This document shows positions 13,312 to 59,247 of a stretch of DNA of 64,000 bases, piece after piece. The notes below the pieces were generated by a model that worked only from the letters and a program-made list of their open reading frames with translations, was not told where the DNA came from and made no database searches. The translations under genes were made by a program, and so were the position numbers. Source of the DNA: a virus (taxonomy: Duplodnaviria; Heunggongvirae; Uroviricota; Caudoviricetes); IMG/VR virus record IMGVR_UViG_2531839524_000004. One strand, 5' to 3'. Within the stretch, counting starts at the first letter, position 1, and each line of letters opens with the position of its first letter.

Positions 13312-13386
13312 GATGGTGTAGCTCAGCGGTAGAGCAGTTGGCTGTTAACCAACTGGTCGGTGGTTCGAATCCACCCACCATCGCCA
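13312..13386 (+). tRNA. tRNA-Asn (anticodon GTT)
   Basis: Hand-folded cloverleaf: acceptor GATGGTG/CACCATC, anticodon loop CTGTTAA, T-loop TTCGAAT, encoded CCA. Confidence 0.85.
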
Positions 13387-13391
13387 ATTTA

Positions 13392-13478
13392 GGGGAGTTA
13401 GTCCGTAGAGGTAGCGGTGTAGACTGTAAATCTACTGTCATGGCGACTCGGGTGGTTCGACTCCATCACTCCCCACCA
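13392..13478 (+). tRNA. tRNA-Tyr (anticodon GTA), long variable arm
   Basis: Acceptor GGGGAGT/ACTCCCC, anticodon loop CTGTAAA, long variable arm, encoded CCA. Confidence 0.8.
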
Positions 13479-13482
13479 AATT

Positions 13483-13558
13483 GCCGGTTTAGCTCAGTTG
13501 GTAGAGCGCCTGCCTTGTAAGCAGGATGTCAGCGGTTCGAGTCCGTTAACCGGCACCA
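13483..13558 (+). tRNA. tRNA-Thr (anticodon TGT)
   Basis: Acceptor GCCGGTT/AACCGGC, D-arm GCTCAGTTGGTAGAGC, anticodon loop CTTGTAA, T-loop TTCGAGT, CCA. Confidence 0.85.
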
Positions 13559-13775
13559 ACACAACAGGAAAGAGCATTGAAACCCGCCGAGACTGCCCTG
13601 TTTTAAGCGTAAGTCCGTGCAAACGTCATACAGTGCTCTTTTCGTTGTGGTTGATGCGCAGACTGATGCGCGGAAAGAAATGCCCCAGCGACACACGAGG
13701 CGAGTTCACACACTGCAATGCAGTCAGTAGCCGGGGTCGCTAAGCCGGAGATCAGTACCGGTAACCACAACAATT

Positions 13776-13862
13776 GGAGAGTAGGGAGCATGGTGCTCAA
13801 GCGGTCTTGAAAACCGTCCCATTGTGCAAACGATGATGGTTCGATTCCATTACTCTCCGCCA
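13776..13862 (+). tRNA. tRNA-Ser (anticodon TGA), long variable arm
   Basis: Acceptor GGAGAGT/ACTCTCC, anticodon loop CTTGAAA, long variable arm, T-loop TTCGATT, CCA; D-arm pairing slightly irregular. Confidence 0.7.
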
Positions 13863-14054: not shown

Positions 14055-15317
14055 TTACTTTGCATAGTCGCCCAATTTTAATATTTCGCGCTTATATTCA
14101 TTAACCATGCTACTGGATTCAGTATAAATTCGATTTAAAAGATTATCGTTATCTTTATTTTCATTTATCTTAATTAGTGCTAATTTATATTCATAGTCAT
14201 CAAATGCCACAATTAAATGGTGGCCTGGGATTATATCTTCGTCACTCTTAAAGTATATATCTTCAAGTATGTAATCTAGTTGATTAGATTTTCTTTTCTC
14301 GATGTAATCTTCAGCCATAGCTATTACATCATTCCTGTCATTTAACCTGTTTTTTTCGGAAGGCACATCTTCGTAATGTTGCACGATTGAACAACCAATA
14401 AGGCGTGGGATGTAAACGTCAAAATGAGTAACTCTATCATTCGCGGTTTTAAGTAGTTCCTCAAAGTAGTTTCTTACATGTAAAGGCAACTTCTCAAAGT
14501 AATCATTAATTATAGGAGAACAAGGAGTTTTATAATTCATAAGAACCGACGGTACGAGCTTTGGGTGTCGAAACATCCAGTCCCTTTTAACGTCCGATGG
14601 AACATAATAACTTTTAATGATATTATCAAAATAATTTATCATTCGAGATTTGAATATTTTGTTGAATCTAAGGTTTATGAATGTATCCAGATAAGGCATA
14701 TTTGAATAAGCATCATCAAAAAATATTTCATCATTGAAAAAATCATATTTATTCAATAAACAACACAGTTTTTCCGAATTAATATGTTCACAATAATCGA
14801 TTTTTAATCCAAAGATAGCAATGATCAACTTCATCTGAGGTGGGATTTTAAAAATTAATTGTGACACATACGCTCTTTTTTCCTTGAGACATTCCCCATC
14901 AATATAAAATGAACCATCCACATACTCAAATATATTAATAATATGCTTCACATACTGTATTACCTCATGCTGTCTTACCAATGGATAATATAGTCTATGT
15001 AACTCATCGCTGTTTAAATTAATTTTGTGTTTATCGATAATTTGTTTTGCAAGAAGACATAACTCATCATGTTGATTTAATAAGGAATCAAACCATTGTT
15101 TAAATGCACTCTTTCGCATTTCGAACAATGATTCAGTTGTTAATTGAAGGGCTGAAAAAGCTGCTTTTGCACTTTTTCTCGCTTCGTAGGCATTCCATGC
15201 TGTTGCTATAAAAGCAAATGCTGTAGCCAATGTTCCAACAGTTTGACCATTTAAAACAACCCAATCCCAAAAAATGACGGTGAGCAGTAGTATAATAATG
15301 AAAATTAAAAAAGGCAT
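14055..15317 (-). CDS. membrane-anchored hypothetical protein, strongly AT-rich accessory gene
   Basis: 420 aa; two N-terminal TM helices; base composition much more AT-rich than flanking genes; isolated on minus strand. Confidence 0.6.
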   Translation of the reverse strand: MPFLIFIIILLLTVIFWDWVVLNGQTVGTLATAFAFIATAWNAYEARKSAKAAFSALQLTTESLFEMRKSAFKQWFDSLLNQHDELCLLAKQIIDKHKINLNSDELHRLYYPLVRQHEVIQYVKHIINIFEYVDGSFYIDGECLKEKRAYVSQLIFKIPPQMKLIIAIFGLKIDYCEHINSEKLCCLLNKYDFFNDEIFFDDAYSNMPYLDTFINLRFNKIFKSRMINYFDNIIKSYYVPSDVKRDWMFRHPKLVPSVLMNYKTPCSPIINDYFEKLPLHVRNYFEELLKTANDRVTHFDVYIPRLIGCSIVQHYEDVPSEKNRLNDRNDVIAMAEDYIEKRKSNQLDYILEDIYFKSDEDIIPGHHLIVAFDDYEYKLALIKINENKDNDNLLNRIYTESSSMVNEYKREILKLGDYAK

Positions 15318-15947: not shown

Positions 15948-17051
15948 ATGAAAAATAGCTTTGACAGAGCACGCGCTGCGGAGAACACCTCAAAAGAGGC
16001 GATTGAGTATCTCGAAAGAGCATCTCAAATGCAGGCCGTTATGATCTCGCAGGTTAGCAATGATATGAGATTCTCGGACGCATTCATGTTATTTACTCGC
16101 TTATCTCTGCTGATAACAAGACGTCGGCCGGAGATCGCTGTTCATTGTATTTTGATACATGTTTTGCCGCACATTGCTGATGTAAAAGTAAGTGACATTA
16201 ATAGGTTCATGGTGAACCAACTGGTCAACCCCCTAATACTGGATGGCAAAATTGTTATGGGCCGCCGCGTTTTCTCTCTGATGAAGCAGTTCCTTAGCTG
16301 GTGTGCCTTCCAGGGGATGATCGACGTGTCACCGTTAAACGATATGTCACTAAACAAAGTTGCCGGTGGCGCAAAGCCCACGCCTCGCGAGCGGAAGCTA
16401 ACCGACGCAGAGGTATGGGTGTTCTGGAATATATGGGACTACTTCAATGTGTGCGCTGGTACAAAATGGGCGGCCAGGCTATGTCTTGTATCCGCAAGAC
16501 GACCTGACGAAGTACTGCGGGCTAAAAAAAGTGAGTTCAACCTCCAGCGTGGGGTTTGGAATCAAGGCAAGAGAAACAAATCAGCCCGTGAGCATTCTCT
16601 GCCTTTAAGCACATTAATGCGCACATGCATTGAAGAGTTATTCGAATATGGTAAAGGCAGCCAGTGGCTTGTGCCTTCGAATAAAAAAATCGGGAAAGAT
16701 CTTCCGATGTCTAAAGTGGCAATAGCCCAGGCATTACGCCGTATCCTGGAACGACCAGAACTGATGGAGCTTGAGCCATTTACACCACGAGATTTGCGTC
16801 GTACTGCGCGTAGTTACTTCCCAGCATTAGGCATAAGCCAGGAGGTATCACGTAAAATCATGAACCACAGTCTTGAGGGGATAGATCGGGTCTACGACCG
16901 GCACGATTATATGGACGAGATGCGAGACGCCTTAGAAAGTTTCTCGACGTACATCGCATCAATCGTAGAGCAACCGGATTTAGACGAAATTGACCACAAA
17001 TTCAAGGGAGATCGTCTATCGACAGAGCTTATTCGTGTAAATTTTTCATAG
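15948..17051 (+). CDS. tyrosine recombinase / phage-type integrase
   Basis: C-terminal catalytic region with DLRRT box and NHSLEG...RVYDRHDY (His and Tyr nucleophile); first His of HxLRR appears to be Arg. Confidence 0.65.
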   Translation: MKNSFDRARAAENTSKEAIEYLERASQMQAVMISQVSNDMRFSDAFMLFTRLSLLITRRRPEIAVHCILIHVLPHIADVKVSDINRFMVNQLVNPLILDGKIVMGRRVFSLMKQFLSWCAFQGMIDVSPLNDMSLNKVAGGAKPTPRERKLTDAEVWVFWNIWDYFNVCAGTKWAARLCLVSARRPDEVLRAKKSEFNLQRGVWNQGKRNKSAREHSLPLSTLMRTCIEELFEYGKGSQWLVPSNKKIGKDLPMSKVAIAQALRRILERPELMELEPFTPRDLRRTARSYFPALGISQEVSRKIMNHSLEGIDRVYDRHDYMDEMRDALESFSTYIASIVEQPDLDEIDHKFKGDRLSTELIRVNFS

Positions 17052-24600: not shown

Positions 24601-25134
24601 GCTGAAATTAACGTGCTCATGACACGGATGGCGGCTGAAATGGGTTTAGGTGATGAACTAATCCGCCCCAGCATTGGTATTAAGCCGAAAATCATGATCA
24701 TTCTGGACAATGCGAACGGCAATGATGCTCGAACCGGTTACTTTATGGAGAACGGATACGACGATTTTAAGGCCAAGTTGCTGACGGCCGGAGATTTGCG
24801 TATGGGCGATCTCTATGTCACAGGCGTTTGCAAGAAGGTTAAAGACAAAGAAAAAGACTACACCAAAGACGAGATCGGCCAGTTCACCGACTTTATGCGT
24901 GAAGAGATCAATCTGGTGCGTCCGACCTATGTTCTGACGTGTGGTAGTCGGGCGACGTCGCTCTTCAACAACAAGAGCAAACCATCCGACCTGGTTGGAC
25001 GCAAAGAGTATCTGCCAGAGCTGGATGTGACCGTTTTCTACGGCTTTAACCCGAATATTTTGTACTTTCGTCCAGAGGAAGGCGAGAAGCTGGAAGCAAT
25101 TCTGGCAGAGGTAGCGGAGACTATTAGCAAATGA
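21616..25134 (+). CDS. DNA polymerase III alpha-like (DnaE-family C-type polymerase)
   Basis: 1172 aa; strong match to DnaE catalytic core, e.g. GPGRGSSAGSLVAWCIGIT..DP and FERFINPERLDLPDADLDF. Confidence 0.9.
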   Translation: MKALMVRTDFSLGESALKAENAGKIAREAGYTAVISADSMNIASVIPLQRAAGDDMAVICGVKLNIVDDPTYEHRAKLAKESMRCMESLERGRNYSFTALIKNEQGYRDICELMTVANTREQFYFVPRLSLDQLVSTYAKGNIILLTSDIGSVFQRNDFAKIISSLITAGGKDNFYSVVYPHPTPFYDQINVRAMKVASALKIEPVAFYPAYYESIDDADIKDIAHMVTNNIKIAQPHRLRIPHQRDNAVNGRRHLLEALKAFSVRMDVPVTAAMASTTQDTIIEACTWRWHELPPALPKMADDEPATLMKLAVAGLRKRLTTKEFGYIPPASENRVYVERLKYEMDTLTRLGFCGYFLMVRDLMNHSRETGIPVGPGRGSSAGSLVAWCIGITNVDPIRHGLLFERFINPERLDLPDADLDFSQARRHEVIEYLNERYGEDYVAGIPNFTYLGAASALRDTARIYGVESADMAVSKELKNVEDDSLPLEELREQLASLDKYATKYPDAFNAACKLQSLMRGFGRHAAGMIVAGVPLTERTPVERRGDARCIAFDKRYCEAMGLIKLDVLGLATLDLLDSAKRYIKENTGEDINLDAISLEDRKVLDGFAAGYTQGVFQLESGPMRKLLKDLGSGIEPMSFKTVVATTALFRPGPIQSGMLDDYVSVAKGFMTPESLHPVLDELTAETNGVILYQEQTMNATRLLAGFTMAEADGVRKAIGKKDMEKMKSMGEKFIVQAQAGWIDVELEDGTTQRIHRAEHFKCEDGTLKTVEEALEHGAKLPINAVRVTASHPGLSEMKAKEIWTAFEKNGAYQFNKSHSVAYSLISYQSMWLKTHYPAEFFAAALTILGEDKHQGLVKDALTYGIRVLPPDVNVSSNRIEIRTLEDGSQVLFAPFSAVKGCSENGCQAIMRAREKVGGKFESLAQFEEAVEKRACNSRVRESLQKVGAFASIEPGSLPATDPERLRDQAELMGNLVIDAVKASRPFEMNPKRSAEINVLMTRMAAEMGLGDELIRPSIGIKPKIMIILDNANGNDARTGYFMENGYDDFKAKLLTAGDLRMGDLYVTGVCKKVKDKEKDYTKDEIGQFTDFMREEINLVRPTYVLTCGSRATSLFNNKSKPSDLVGRKEYLPELDVTVFYGFNPNILYFRPEEGEKLEAILAEVAETISK

Positions 25135-25312
25135 ACAAAGAGAACACCATAAAGGTGGTCAAAGAATTTATGGAAGTGAACAGATTGGCGATGTGAGACA
25201 GTATCGGCTGAAGCGTCAAACCAGAGTAACGCGATCCAACATTTTTAGTAAGAAAGTCGCTTAATTGTAAGGCTCGCTAAGTAGCGAGCCTTAATAGCAA
25301 CAATAAGAGGAC

Positions 25313-26161
25313 TCAATATTTAACAAATATTTCATTAAGCCTAGGGTTAACTTGGTCATATTTATCTATGTCGTCTTTTAAAACTGAATGACATTTGACA
25401 CCAATTTCAAATGCTATCAATATCGAATTTATATATTGATTATAGCATTCAATCAAAGATTTAATATCAGATGATAGTTGTATCAACCGTGGATTGACTC
25501 TAAGAGCACTAATAACCTTATCATACTTGTTAAGCAACCCATTCAATTCATTAGCAAAATTATATGGATAACCATTTTGGTATGTATTTTCATCATCAGC
25601 AGGACCTAAATAATCACCAATGCACTTAAGTTTATTCTTAATGAATACAGCATCTTCAGTGGCATCTATATCATTTTTCGTTAAGAAAAGTTCTATCCAC
25701 TTGTTCTTGTCCGACTCTTTCAAAAGGTTATTTTCTTTATCAAAAGTAATACAATAGCTATCACTTTTTTTCTCGTTGGAAATACTAATCATTTCCGCCA
25801 ACTCGTCTTTACCTAAATGTTTCCAAAATATTACAGGGAGACCGTTGTCGTTTAGAAAAACGCGAACAATGACAATCGGATCATTAATACTTTGCCAATA
25901 AATTAAATTTTTAATAGGTACAGAAACTCTTAGTGAATCATCGATTTTTTTACTTGTTGTTTTAACTTGAACTCCAATAAACATACCTGTTGAATGACAG
26001 TTGTCATCATAAATCTCAACCTGAGCATCCAACCCCATGTCAATATCAAGAATTCGGCAAGGCCATACAAATTTATTTGAAATCCAATATGCGAAATAAA
26101 ACTCACCAGCATTTCCGTTAGCAACTCTTTCGATATATCTCATGCCCTGATCGTTTGCCAC
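25313..26161 (-). CDS. hypothetical protein with PD-(D/E)xK-like N-terminal motif (recalled DUF4365-like pattern); AT-rich accessory gene
   Basis: 282 aa; LDIDMGLDAQVEIY ... IGVQVKTT arrangement; isolated minus-strand AT-rich gene convergent with polymerase. Confidence 0.55.
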   Translation of the reverse strand: MANDQGMRYIERVANGNAGEFYFAYWISNKFVWPCRILDIDMGLDAQVEIYDDNCHSTGMFIGVQVKTTSKKIDDSLRVSVPIKNLIYWQSINDPIVIVRVFLNDNGLPVIFWKHLGKDELAEMISISNEKKSDSYCITFDKENNLLKESDKNKWIELFLTKNDIDATEDAVFIKNKLKCIGDYLGPADDENTYQNGYPYNFANELNGLLNKYDKVISALRVNPRLIQLSSDIKSLIECYNQYINSILIAFEIGVKCHSVLKDDIDKYDQVNPRLNEIFVKY

Positions 26162-26315
26162 TTCCGTATCCCTTGTTAAGTTATCACTGGAGCACTTTAG
26201 AGAACACTTTGATAATTAACAAGTTGCAGCCTAGTGGACAGACAAAGGCTATTGTTTGATGTAACACCAGATAGTCATATAATTGATATATAGAAATAAG
26301 TAACAGGATACATTT

Positions 26316-57561: not shown

Positions 57562-59247
57562 ATGAATACAGCTCTTTCCATCATCGACGATGCCAACTCA
57601 AACACTGCTATCGATTATCGTCAGGAAATGAACGTCATCCACGAAATTGTGGCCGAGTGCGAGAAGGAGATCGCCTTCATGTATCAGGTTCACGACTTCG
57701 TTTATGGAGACGAACGCCACAACATGATTAATCGCCTGCTGCAACTGAACCACCGACCAGATGAAGAACGCTCACGTTTGAATCGAGCTTGGCTGGATAA
57801 AGTCGATCTGGAATGGGTGAAACAGAATATTTGGGCCGAGTACTGGAGGAAGGTCACGGATATGACTAACGTTCTGCTGATCATGCCAGCTTCCCGTCGC
57901 GACGAGTGGCGTGAGCAGTTTATCGAGGGTAAGCAGGAAGTCATCAAAACTGACAGAACCGGCTATCAGATGAAGGTAAAAGAGTTCGTTGGTGTACCGG
58001 AGTTCAAAGCAGAAACGGTCATACCCACGATGCTTAATTTGCTGAATGACAGGCACAAATATCTCTCTGAGCGCGTGTATGGCTTGTTTAAGGCGCTGAG
58101 TCCTGCGCACAAGACAAATAAGACAAACGGTTTCAGCGAACGTCTGATAATCGCTGACTGCATTTCTGATTTCTGGCGGGACAGCGTTAGTGTGAACTAT
58201 CGCAAAGAGGACTATATCGACGATCTGCGTGTCTTGCTTCATTTCTTCGCGCACAAAGAATTTATTACCATCAACCGCACTGCTGAGGTGCTATCAGCTG
58301 CGTATCGGGCAAACGACTGCCGGACCGGTGACTGGATGAACGTCGATGGAAATCTGATGCGCGTGAAGATGTTCAAGAACGGCAACGTTCACTTTGAAAT
58401 ACATCCTGACGTGGCCTGGAAGTTGAATGAGGGGCTGGCTTACAGTATGCCTGCTGCAATCCCCGCGCCATGTCGCACCGCGCCAAAAACACGGGCACCA
58501 AAGCAGTTCGGGTTAATCCAGAAGACGATCTCCGTGCCGGTTCGCACTGCGCTTCGTGACGGGCGATTGAGCAAAGACAAAGGCGTATGGTACTTCTCTG
58601 ATTCAGCTCTCCAGAAGTCGCAGGTGGAAGAGCTTGAGCGCACACTGAGCTTCATTGGCGGCGTGCAGGAGAAAAAGCACTGGCAGTTCCCGTATGACAT
58701 CGTCCATACGCTAAATACGATTGTGGCTACCGGTTTAATACCGGATACAAAATCACACCAGTTCTACCCTCCCCCACGCTTGATTGCTGAGTACGTTGCC
58801 AGAGCCACTGAATTGAAGTCTGGTGAGAAGCTGCTGGAGCCTCAAGCCGGACGTGGGGATCTTCTGGCCTATATTAACGCCGATCTGGAAGATGTTACCT
58901 GCATAGAAATCGCACCTCTCTTCGCTGATATCCTGCGTGGAAAAGGGTATACGAACACGATTTGCTGCGACTTCATAAAGTGGTCTGAGGACAACGTAGG
59001 TTATCAGTTCGACAAAATCGTTATGAACCCGCCGTATTCGCTTGGTCGTCATAGAGAGCACACGCTGGCTGCGCTGGGGCATCTGAAAGTCGGCGGGCGT
59101 CTTGTAGCAGTATTGCCGGGCACTGCGCCAATACTGGACTGGATGACGATGGATAATTACGTTTATGCCAGAGGGAAGTCGTTTACCAACGAGTTTGAAG
59201 ACACAGGGATCACAGTCAGCGTATACGTTTTCAAACGCGTTAAATGA
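57562..59247 (+). CDS. large protein with C-terminal amino-methyltransferase domain (gamma-class, NPPY)
   Basis: C-terminal motif I-like LLEPQAGRGDLL and motif IV IVMNPPYS; N-terminal about 400 aa without recognisable motifs. Confidence 0.65.
   Translation: MNTALSIIDDANSNTAIDYRQEMNVIHEIVAECEKEIAFMYQVHDFVYGDERHNMINRLLQLNHRPDEERSRLNRAWLDKVDLEWVKQNIWAEYWRKVTDMTNVLLIMPASRRDEWREQFIEGKQEVIKTDRTGYQMKVKEFVGVPEFKAETVIPTMLNLLNDRHKYLSERVYGLFKALSPAHKTNKTNGFSERLIIADCISDFWRDSVSVNYRKEDYIDDLRVLLHFFAHKEFITINRTAEVLSAAYRANDCRTGDWMNVDGNLMRVKMFKNGNVHFEIHPDVAWKLNEGLAYSMPAAIPAPCRTAPKTRAPKQFGLIQKTISVPVRTALRDGRLSKDKGVWYFSDSALQKSQVEELERTLSFIGGVQEKKHWQFPYDIVHTLNTIVATGLIPDTKSHQFYPPPRLIAEYVARATELKSGEKLLEPQAGRGDLLAYINADLEDVTCIEIAPLFADILRGKGYTNTICCDFIKWSEDNVGYQFDKIVMNPPYSLGRHREHTLAALGHLKVGGRLVAVLPGTAPILDWMTMDNYVYARGKSFTNEFEDTGITVSVYVFKRVK

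Follow-up and report, generated by a model that had tools for sequence, protein, structure and literature searches.

We analysed a 64,000-nucleotide stretch of viral DNA (IMG/VR record IMGVR_UViG_2531839524_000004; the whole stretch is referred to below as the window), which is an SSU5-like phage-plasmid of Escherichia coli, and focused on a lone AT-rich gene between its DNA polymerase gene dnaE and a uvsY-like gene. The gene encodes a 282-aa protein with an N-terminal nuclease domain of the DUF4365/DREN family and a C-terminal helical bundle, and it occupies a slot in which phage-plasmids exchange cargo. On balance, we favour the interpretation that it is a stand-alone nuclease directed against phages or other mobile elements (defence or exclusion), carried as a single-gene accessory cassette. 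We favour this reading because the DREN-type active site seems intact, the bundle evolves fast and does not look like a DNA-binding module, there is no partner gene, and the slot is a swap-prone one of a temperate element. The analogy to the DUF4365 systems SPARDA, Divona and EAT16, together with the hotspot context, argues for a defence role.

Gene organization and base composition

The gene is an intact open reading frame (ORF) of 282 codons plus a stop with a GTG start, and a Shine-Dalgarno-like AAGGGA motif lies 7 nt 5' of the GTG. In pG749_2, a plasmid 99.6% identical to the window, RefSeq annotates the same ORF with the same coordinates and start as 'DUF4365 domain-containing protein' (WP_106372450), and a DUF4365 coding sequence (CDS) is annotated at matching coordinates in CP062814. 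The GC content of the gene is 0.319 (0.269 at third codon positions), compared with 0.44–0.50 for six neighbouring genes, and only 1.3% of the 849-bp segments across the 64 kb are as AT-rich.

The DUF4365 gene is the sole minus-strand gene within a plus-strand block coding for a VWA protein, an AAA ATPase, the 1172-aa DnaE, a 143-aa uvsY-like protein, a gp32-like single-stranded DNA-binding protein (SSB), a 5'-3' exonuclease and a RecA-like protein (names transferred from annotated relatives). It is convergent with dnaE, whose stop codon is at 25134. An earlier interpretation made from the letters and their ORFs (the sequence-only reading) had described this lone convergent gene in a replication block, with a GC content far below that of its neighbours, and the ORF list and base composition confirm both points. 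It had also described intergenic flanks belonging to the gene. A control region lies on the right, and on the left some of the flank is what remains of another gene (Table 1).

The N-terminal nuclease domain

The protein matched the Pfam family DUF4365 (PF14280) with an E-value of 1.1e-13 and 51.9 bits against a cut-off of 24.3, with residues 18–156 covering profile positions 3–136 of 139. All 26 aligned homologues matched the same family, and the likeness to DUF4365 that the sequence-only reading had proposed was thereby substantiated. The sole PADLOC match was to Aga_REase-PNTD1-PNTD2 (model positions 25–143 of 429, protein residues 28–159); judging from its name and from the part that matches, this appears to be an Argonaute-associated REase-APAZ model. 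A literature search for the 'PNTD1/PNTD2' label returned nothing relevant.

An AlphaFold (AF2) model based on the 26 homologues had a predicted local distance difference test (pLDDT) score of 82.6 and a predicted template modelling (pTM) score of 0.70. It comprised an alpha/beta domain (residues 18–139) followed by a helical domain (residues 162–281), with a matching order of secondary-structure elements. In a Foldseek search of the PDB, the best 12 matches were DREN-APAZ chains of SPARDA (E = 9e-8 to 5e-5 over ~150–165 columns), followed by DpnI, the PrfA Holliday-junction resolvase, and the type II restriction enzymes MspI, PvuII and HincII.

The motifs LDIDMGLDAQVEIY and IGVQVKTT, from which a PD-(D/E)xK-type core had been proposed, are both present and coincide with the invariant columns G43, D45, A46, Q47, E49, Q65, K67 and T69 of the family; together with the structural matches, they place the catalytic core where the proposal had put it. 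Residues D45, Q65 and K67 align with D41, Q60 and K62 of NbaSPARDA, which bind Mg2+ and are needed for activity (PMC12205087). Furthermore, D41, D45, Q65 and K67 align with D42, D46, Q66 and K68 of EAT16, a Photorhabdus protein (WP_082303719) from an extracellular contractile injection system (eCIS) neighbourhood that kills E. coli when expressed; three of the four alanine mutants of these residues lose toxicity in E. coli (PMC11297309). Because the motifs form the invariant core of the family and align with essential residues of NbaSPARDA and EAT16, the nuclease reading rests on firm ground, and the active site appears to be intact. By profile, motif and fold, the N-terminal domain is a member of the DUF4365/DREN family. 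Metal-dependent activity has been demonstrated for SPARDA complexes only and inferred for EAT16 (PMC12205087; PMC11297309), and by analogy the 282-aa protein would be a metal (Mg2+)-dependent nuclease.

The best viral structural match to the nuclease domain in BFVD was Q6NE05, a 176-aa DUF4365 protein of Leptospira phage LE1. This phage also replicates as a plasmid.

The C-terminal helical domain

While the nuclease half of the sequence-only reading stood, that reading missed a second domain. Residues 157–282 fold into three long helices and one short helix in the model, and modelled alone they reach a pLDDT of 87.4 and a pTM of 0.80. The isoelectric point (pI) is 5.0 for the whole protein and 4.8 for this domain. 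The domain had no Pfam match in any of the 26 family members and contained no recognisable DNA-binding, DNA-recognition or modification-reading module. A profile of the domain searched against 1.84 billion representative proteins matched only eight. These included five two-domain members, of which three were already in the family (precomputed DUF4365) and two more matched DUF4365 directly, and two short proteins of 84 and 165 aa without a Pfam match; the remaining one, a 1060-aa repeat protein, is probably spurious. Since so few representatives matched, the bundle appears to be essentially specific to this small DUF4365 family.

The two domains differ in how fast they diverge. Mean pairwise identity is 0.61 in the nuclease domain versus 0.37 in the bundle, and the nuclease domain is the more similar one in 253 of 253 pairs. 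A conserved N-terminal domain joined to a diverging C-terminal domain is what one would expect if an effector were coupled to a sensor, and the bundle would be the sensor.

The character of this domain bears on whether the protein could be a restriction-like nuclease (Mrr-type, or type IV modification-dependent) that reads foreign DNA directly and protects without killing the host. DUF4365 has been described as part of the Mrr subfamily of PD-(D/E)xK nucleases, restriction enzymes come after SPARDA in the fold search, and the gene resembles type IV systems in having neither a methyltransferase nor an antitoxin as partner. However, no DNA-binding or modification-reading domain is present, the C-terminal domain being an acidic helical bundle, and the protein matched none of the PADLOC type IV models, whereas a neighbour of its Serratia homologue did so strongly (see below). 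In addition, characterised DUF4365 nucleases are non-specific once switched on. We consider direct restriction improbable.

A cargo hotspot in SSU5-like phage-plasmids

The backbone flanking the gene is common to ~780 plasmids and 12 phages; SSU5, Cyrano and Klebsiella phage-plasmids are among them. The plasmids are nearly all ~100–120 kb in size and non-mobilizable. Within this backbone, the dnaE/uvsY-like junction is a cargo hotspot. The slot holds an identical DUF4365 gene in pG749_2, CP062814 and CP195946, a 327-aa DUF4365 allele in pRM13322, a 196-aa ORF in pYLPM7a and the HicAB genes in phage Cyrano. Other cargo includes AlpA-like, CspG, lipoprotein and further ORFs, with slot lengths of ~0.1–1.9 kb in a sample spread over the ranking of relatives. 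In most relatives, the slot is empty or filled with other cargo.

In a tblastn search, 30 plasmid records contained a family member over its full length; almost all were SSU5-like phage-plasmids, from Escherichia, Salmonella, Klebsiella, Enterobacter and Citrobacter hosts. The plasmid alleles were 100%, 87%, 43%, 42%, 40% and 33% identical to the window allele, and in the records opened (E. coli, Citrobacter, Klebsiella and Salmonella) they shared the slot and the orientation. The exact allele was found in 3 of the ~780 related plasmids; among 5426 complete E. coli genomes it was present in 3, each time on an SSU5-like plasmid. Family members occur in ~4% of related elements, and tblastn found none in 50,697 phage records (including SSU5). 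The gene is neither a structural or housekeeping gene nor a core gene, and its product has a predicted nuclease fold; on each of these points the sequence-only reading could have failed.

This distribution also bears on a role in the lytic cycle, in which the nuclease would belong to the replication/recombination module and resolve junctions or degrade host DNA for nucleotides. The location among dnaE, uvsY-like, gp32-like SSB, 5'-3' exonuclease and RecA-like genes is what such a role would predict; the fold is weakly similar to the PrfA/RecU Holliday-junction resolvase (E = 0.014), and the EAT16 domain has also been likened to a junction resolvase (PMC11297309). However, the gene lies on the opposite strand with a foreign composition, a core function is excluded by the occurrence of family members in so few relatives and in none of the phage records, and homologues exist outside phages. 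Moreover, the fold search is headed by defence effectors, which lead by five orders of magnitude in E-value. A lytic-cycle function seems to us quite doubtful.

Several further observations were made on the slot and its alleles. The 196-aa ORF of pYLPM7a (WP_000459728; NZ_CP073997.1, locus L004, 2354–2944, minus strand) is the commonest alternative cargo among close E. coli relatives; its only match was sub-threshold, to a YfbR-like 5'-deoxynucleotidase (E = 0.0045), and it had no PADLOC match. Six DUF4365 alleles of 307–332 aa (P0019, P0024 and P0026–P0029) carry a lysine-rich N-terminal extension of 35–45 residues that the window allele does not have, and this sub-clade includes alleles of Salmonella, Klebsiella and some E. 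coli phage-plasmids. The extension might be a DNA- or nucleoid-binding tail. In NZ_CP062814.1 (locus L002, 1029–1763, plus strand), an 'HNH endonuclease' CDS is annotated within the dnaE region, where dnaE itself is unlisted, an arrangement suggestive of a polymerase gene interrupted by an intron, an intein or a homing endonuclease.

Horizontal exchange and selection

Comparison with the Citrobacter freundii phage-plasmid pA_CitB revealed a tract of raised identity that starts inside the 3' end of dnaE and ends with a sharp drop at the start of the uvsY-like gene (Table 1). The DUF4365 gene is 91.4% identical between the two elements, and its left and right flanks are each ~91% identical, compared with 83.7% for dnaE, 77.2% for the uvsY-like gene and 76.8% for the SSB-like gene. 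Synonymous divergence (dS) is 0.20 in the DUF4365 gene and 1.5–2.3 in its neighbours. Because identity is raised and dS is so much lower in the cassette than around it, the sequences indicate that the cassette passed between lineages well after their backbones had separated, through recombination in the homologous flanks.

The ratio of nonsynonymous to synonymous divergence (dN/dS) is 0.30 for the DUF4365 gene and 0.04–0.07 for its neighbours, the pattern of a gene under purifying selection that is comparatively relaxed. Positive selection found no support, dN/dS being 0.30 overall and 0.33 in the C-terminal domain for one close pair. The pA_CitB allele (locus L024, 2501–3352, minus strand), which is 87% identical, ends 12 codons early at a premature stop and is annotated with a shorter start, and this copy may be decaying.

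The sequence-only reading had taken the gene for a recently acquired moron. Its presence in three of ~780 relatives, the variable slot, and the cassette that is closer to its Citrobacter counterpart than the 77–84% identical backbone all bear this out. Variable presence, atypical composition, predicted signals of its own and exchange independent of the backbone mark the gene as a phage-plasmid accessory (moron) cassette. A transposon or integron cassette was rejected, since there are no flanking direct or inverted repeats and the boundaries lie inside homologous backbone sequence.

The same pattern could be produced by a free-standing homing endonuclease, a selfish gene without benefit to the host that would cut the dnaE/uvsY-like junction of relatives lacking it and be copied in by repair. 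A lone AT-rich gene between conserved replication/recombination genes, sporadic at one conserved site among close relatives, would fit, as would the tract of raised identity, which reaches ~330 bp into dnaE and resembles co-conversion. A relative with an HNH endonuclease ORF in its dnaE region indicates that homing genes may be active nearby, and the DREN fold resembles the tetrameric homing endonuclease I-Ssp6803I (PMC12205087; XauSPARDA preprint). However, homologues lie at unrelated sites with different flanks, on the chromosomes of Serratia, Providencia, Proteus and E. coli and on other plasmids. The slot also accepts unrelated cargo such as HicAB and CspG, which points to a general hotspot, and the DUF4365 alleles that occupy it diverge by as much as 67%. 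In addition, both the protein and its C-terminal domain are acidic and have no recognisable DNA-recognition module, and characterised DUF4365 nucleases cut without sequence specificity. We regard homing as unlikely.

Homologues in other plasmids and chromosomes

The family comprises 31 clusters at 90% identity, and its named members (Serratia, Xenorhabdus, Enterobacter, Proteus, Providencia, Salmonella and E. coli) are almost all Enterobacterales. A scan of species-representative genomes recovered only three loci, in Buttiauxella, Dryocola and a Campylobacterales metagenome-assembled genome, and none in Photorhabdus or Vibrio. Chromosomal homologues are always lone genes with large intergenic flanks. 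The Serratia homologue adjoins a transposase fragment and has a type IV restriction enzyme 7.5 kb away (PADLOC, E = 1e-81), the Providencia homologue lies between two inovirus prophages, and the E. coli homologue is part of a CP4-like island that also contains YeeU, antirestriction and IS66 genes. The copy in this island is present in 82 of 5426 genomes, mostly O26/O103-type among those listed. Plasmids of Yersinia, Enterobacter and Vibrio carry, again as lone genes, relatives that have only the N-terminal domain in common and differ in their C-termini; two of these three genes are near integrases.

No conserved partner gene was found across the homologous loci examined. The candidates considered were 294–332-aa ORFs in Providencia and E. 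coli and a 147-aa gene in Citrobacter and Klebsiella; they were rejected because they are absent or decayed both here and in other loci. On the E. coli E2865 chromosome (locus L020, 10866–11864, plus strand), a 332-aa hypothetical protein is encoded 136 bp upstream of the DUF4365 homologue on the same strand and shows a weak, sub-threshold HEPN-family match (E = 0.0047). A 294-aa ORF without a Pfam match occupies the same relative position in Providencia.

These loci allow an assessment of whether the protein is a toxin, either secreted or injected as cargo of a contractile injection system or type VI secretion system (T6SS), as EAT16 has been interpreted, or serving plasmid addiction. EAT16 shows that a DUF4365 protein from an eCIS neighbourhood can kill E. 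coli, the Proteus homologue adjoins an orphan Hcp gene, and the slot itself holds the HicAB toxin-antitoxin pair in phage Cyrano. However, EAT16 shares only its nuclease domain with the 282-aa protein, and the Proteus gene is divergent from Hcp and not in an operon with it. Neither flanking injection-system or T6SS genes nor a delivery domain were found. No immunity or antitoxin gene is adjacent here or in the homologous loci examined, and there is no conserved co-oriented small ORF. An RNA antitoxin was considered and is unlikely, as the flanks of the DUF4365 gene had no Rfam match and no tandem, direct or inverted flanking repeats were seen. We judge a toxin role very improbable.

Proposed mode of action

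The mechanism that we propose for a stand-alone defence nuclease is modelled on SPARDA. There, the isolated DREN domain is monomeric and inactive, and activation requires a D2 tetramer formed through helix-1 and beta1-beta2 contacts in a filament (PMC12205087; XauSPARDA preprint). Once active, SPARDA is a non-specific DNase, and the cell dies or goes dormant (PMC12205087). By analogy, the 282-aa protein would be produced from a promoter of its own during the plasmid stage of the element, and its nuclease domain would be inactive as a monomer, with the C-terminal bundle holding the enzyme off. An infection cue would be sensed through the bundle or would relieve its inhibition. The nuclease domains would then oligomerise, as DREN domains do in SPARDA, and the oligomer would degrade DNA without sequence specificity, so that the infection would be aborted or a rival element excluded.

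Several observations weigh against a defence function. PADLOC scans of the neighbours at chromosomal loci showed only a weak association with known defence genes, and a literature search found no assay of any member of this particular family. For the protein itself, PADLOC matched an Argonaute-associated model in its nuclease part only; PHROGs contained no match, and NCBIfam returned nothing meaningful. Nothing recognisable as a sensor feature was seen in the C-terminal domain, which is a generic bundle of helices. No minus-strand promoter for the DUF4365 gene passed the consensus scan, the best candidate being below threshold, and the premature stop of the Citrobacter copy shows that copies can decay. 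It should also be noted that a similar footprint in the genome would be expected from a nuclease that is constitutively active or simply selfish.

A bolder proposal, which we put forward tentatively and as less probable than the defence role in general, is that the protein is a minimal, Argonaute-free DREN switch. The diversifying bundle would sense a phage or plasmid component and drive formation of the active oligomer, and the dnaE/uvsY-like junction would be a dedicated immune hotspot that exchanges divergent alleles (33–100% identity) and other systems by homologous recombination. If so, phage-plasmids would gain a swappable means of excluding rival phages and plasmids.

Phage-plasmids of the SSU5 type are frequent in clinical E. 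coli, Shigella, Salmonella and Klebsiella, and little work has been done on their accessory genes. If the cassette is protective, it would add a compact single-protein nuclease with a new regulatory domain to the DUF4365-based defences (SPARDA and Divona), mark a defined and easily scanned hotspot for finding further systems, and offer a simple model for DREN-type nuclease switching without an Argonaute scaffold. If it is not, the locus still illustrates clearly how phage-plasmid lineages exchange cassettes.

Flanking signals and other features of the window

The control region to the right of the DUF4365 gene is shared with the divergent uvsY-like gene, and it travels with the DUF4365 gene, since it is ~91% identical to that of the Citrobacter cassette. 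On the left, the hairpin formed by the inverted repeat has folding energies of -22.3 and -23.6 kcal/mol on the two strands (z = -4.6 and -5.5) and is a candidate bidirectional terminator without a U-tract. It was not called by the terminator scan because it has no T-run. The adjacent gene remnant keeps residues 1–7 and ~110–147 of the 147-aa backbone protein in different frames, with ~100 internal codons deleted. The 147-aa gene, which overlaps the dnaE stop codon, is intact 3' of dnaE in Citrobacter and Klebsiella phage-plasmids and decayed in the window and also in other E. coli relatives.

Table 1 Features at the DUF4365 locus of the window.
Feature	Position	Strand	Basis
Raised-identity (~0.90–0.98) recombination tract shared with C. 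freundii pA_CitB (start approximate)	24800..26310	.	Sliding and per-segment identity
Variable slot, 1150 bp here versus 94 bp in 'empty' pLAO7	25127..26276	.	BLAST boundaries, pLAO7 annotation
Internally deleted, frameshifted remnant of the 147-aa backbone gene	25131..25264	+	tblastn with the Citrobacter 147-aa protein
Perfect inverted repeat, arms of 12 nt with a 2-nt gap, located where dnaE and the DUF4365 gene converge	25268-25293	.	Repeat search, folding
Complete CDS of the two-domain DUF4365 protein	25313..26161	-	Identical to RefSeq WP_106372450; 31 homologous clusters of similar length
Family-specific acidic three-helix bundle, C-terminal, residues 157–282, pI 4.8	25316..25693	-	Model, profile searches
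DUF4365/DREN-type PD-(D/E)xK nuclease domain, N-terminal, residues 17–156	25694..26113	-	Pfam, PADLOC, Foldseek
Catalytic core DxGxD...QxK (D41, G43, D45, E49, Q65, K67)	25961..26041	-	Invariant or near-invariant in 26 homologues
E20 on helix 1	26102-26104	-	Family alignment
Divergent control region (154 bp) common to the DUF4365 and uvsY-like genes	26162..26315	.	Sequence, promoter scan
Shine-Dalgarno-like AAGGGA	26169-26174	-	Sequence
Weak sigma-70-like candidate TTGTTA-17-TAAAGT for the DUF4365 gene	26222..26194	-	Promoter scan, 8/12 match
Candidate promoter TTGATG-16-TATAAT for the uvsY-like gene	26256-26283	+	Promoter scan

Two other regions of the window were recorded. A second AT-rich island at 14055–15317 (minus strand) has the lowest GC content in the window (~0.30). 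It encodes a 420-aa protein whose N-terminus is hydrophobic and which matched neither Pfam nor PADLOC. The island is flanked by a cluster of four tRNA genes (Asn, Tyr, Thr and Ser; 13312–13862) on one side and a 367-aa tyrosine-recombinase-like ORF (15948–17051) on the other, and may be further accessory or defence cargo. At 57562–59247 (plus strand), the translation of a 561-aa ORF contains in its C-terminal part an NPPY motif (IVMNPPYSLG) typical of N6-adenine/N4-cytosine DNA methyltransferases; this ORF may encode an orphan methylase of the phage-plasmid.

Comparison with known systems

The closest structural relatives are the DREN-APAZ proteins of SPARDA (PDB 9jsb/9jsz/9jt2, 9qcc, 9qbp and 9vx6), which belong to the same Pfam family. 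The catalytic Asp and QxK of SPARDA are kept in the 282-aa protein, which by analogy may need oligomerisation for activation and may cut DNA non-specifically. However, the 282-aa protein lacks APAZ, in keeping with its match to only the first third of the PADLOC model, and has a 126-residue helical bundle instead. Because the bundle replaces APAZ, the protein cannot be guide-directed. The neighbours on the other strand are dnaE and the uvsY-like gene, and no short Argonaute partner was found at this locus or at any homologous locus examined. With neither an APAZ domain nor an Argonaute gene, identity with SPARDA was rejected.

EAT16 and Divona resemble the present protein in being single-gene, two-domain proteins of ~280–340 aa with an N-terminal DUF4365 domain, and they and this family are both found in mobile contexts. 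Divona is a single DUF4365 gene of a Vibrio cholerae integron that protects against phage (preprint). In EAT16, the DxGxD...QxK motif stands at almost the same positions as in the 282-aa protein. The difference lies in the C-terminal half: that of EAT16 is a Crr6/DUF1817 domain (PF08847, E = 2.4e-8), to which the 282-aa protein and 25 relatives had no match at E ≤ 1. An hhalign comparison of the two C-terminal domains gave a probability of 0.4%, and the profiles of the two families aligned only over residues 8–122. The Crr6 type is large and found in many phyla (298 clusters), compared with the small, mainly Enterobacterales family described here. Having no Crr6 domain and an unrelated C-terminal domain, the protein was rejected as an EAT16-type nuclease. 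As judged through EAT16, the DUF4365+Crr6 architecture reported for Divona sets the 282-aa protein apart from the Divona type as well. An EAT16-seeded search gave no Vibrio cholerae member among the 120 matches listed.

PD-(D/E)xK homing endonucleases of the I-Ssp6803I type are likewise lone genes with a sporadic distribution. Here, however, nothing points to a specific target site, homologues occur at many unrelated loci, and the protein carries an extra acidic C-terminal domain. As moron cargo, the HicAB genes of phage Cyrano offer the nearest parallel, with the same position between dnaE and the uvsY-like gene, the minus strand, signals of their own and variable presence. They encode different proteins, presumably with a different mechanism, whereas the DUF4365 cargo comes without a partner gene.

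Public records already annotate the gene by its domain name, and DUF4365 nucleases are established as defence effectors. Our study adds a two-domain DUF4365 family with a private helical domain and identifies this family as one among several cargoes that are exchanged at a phage-plasmid hotspot.

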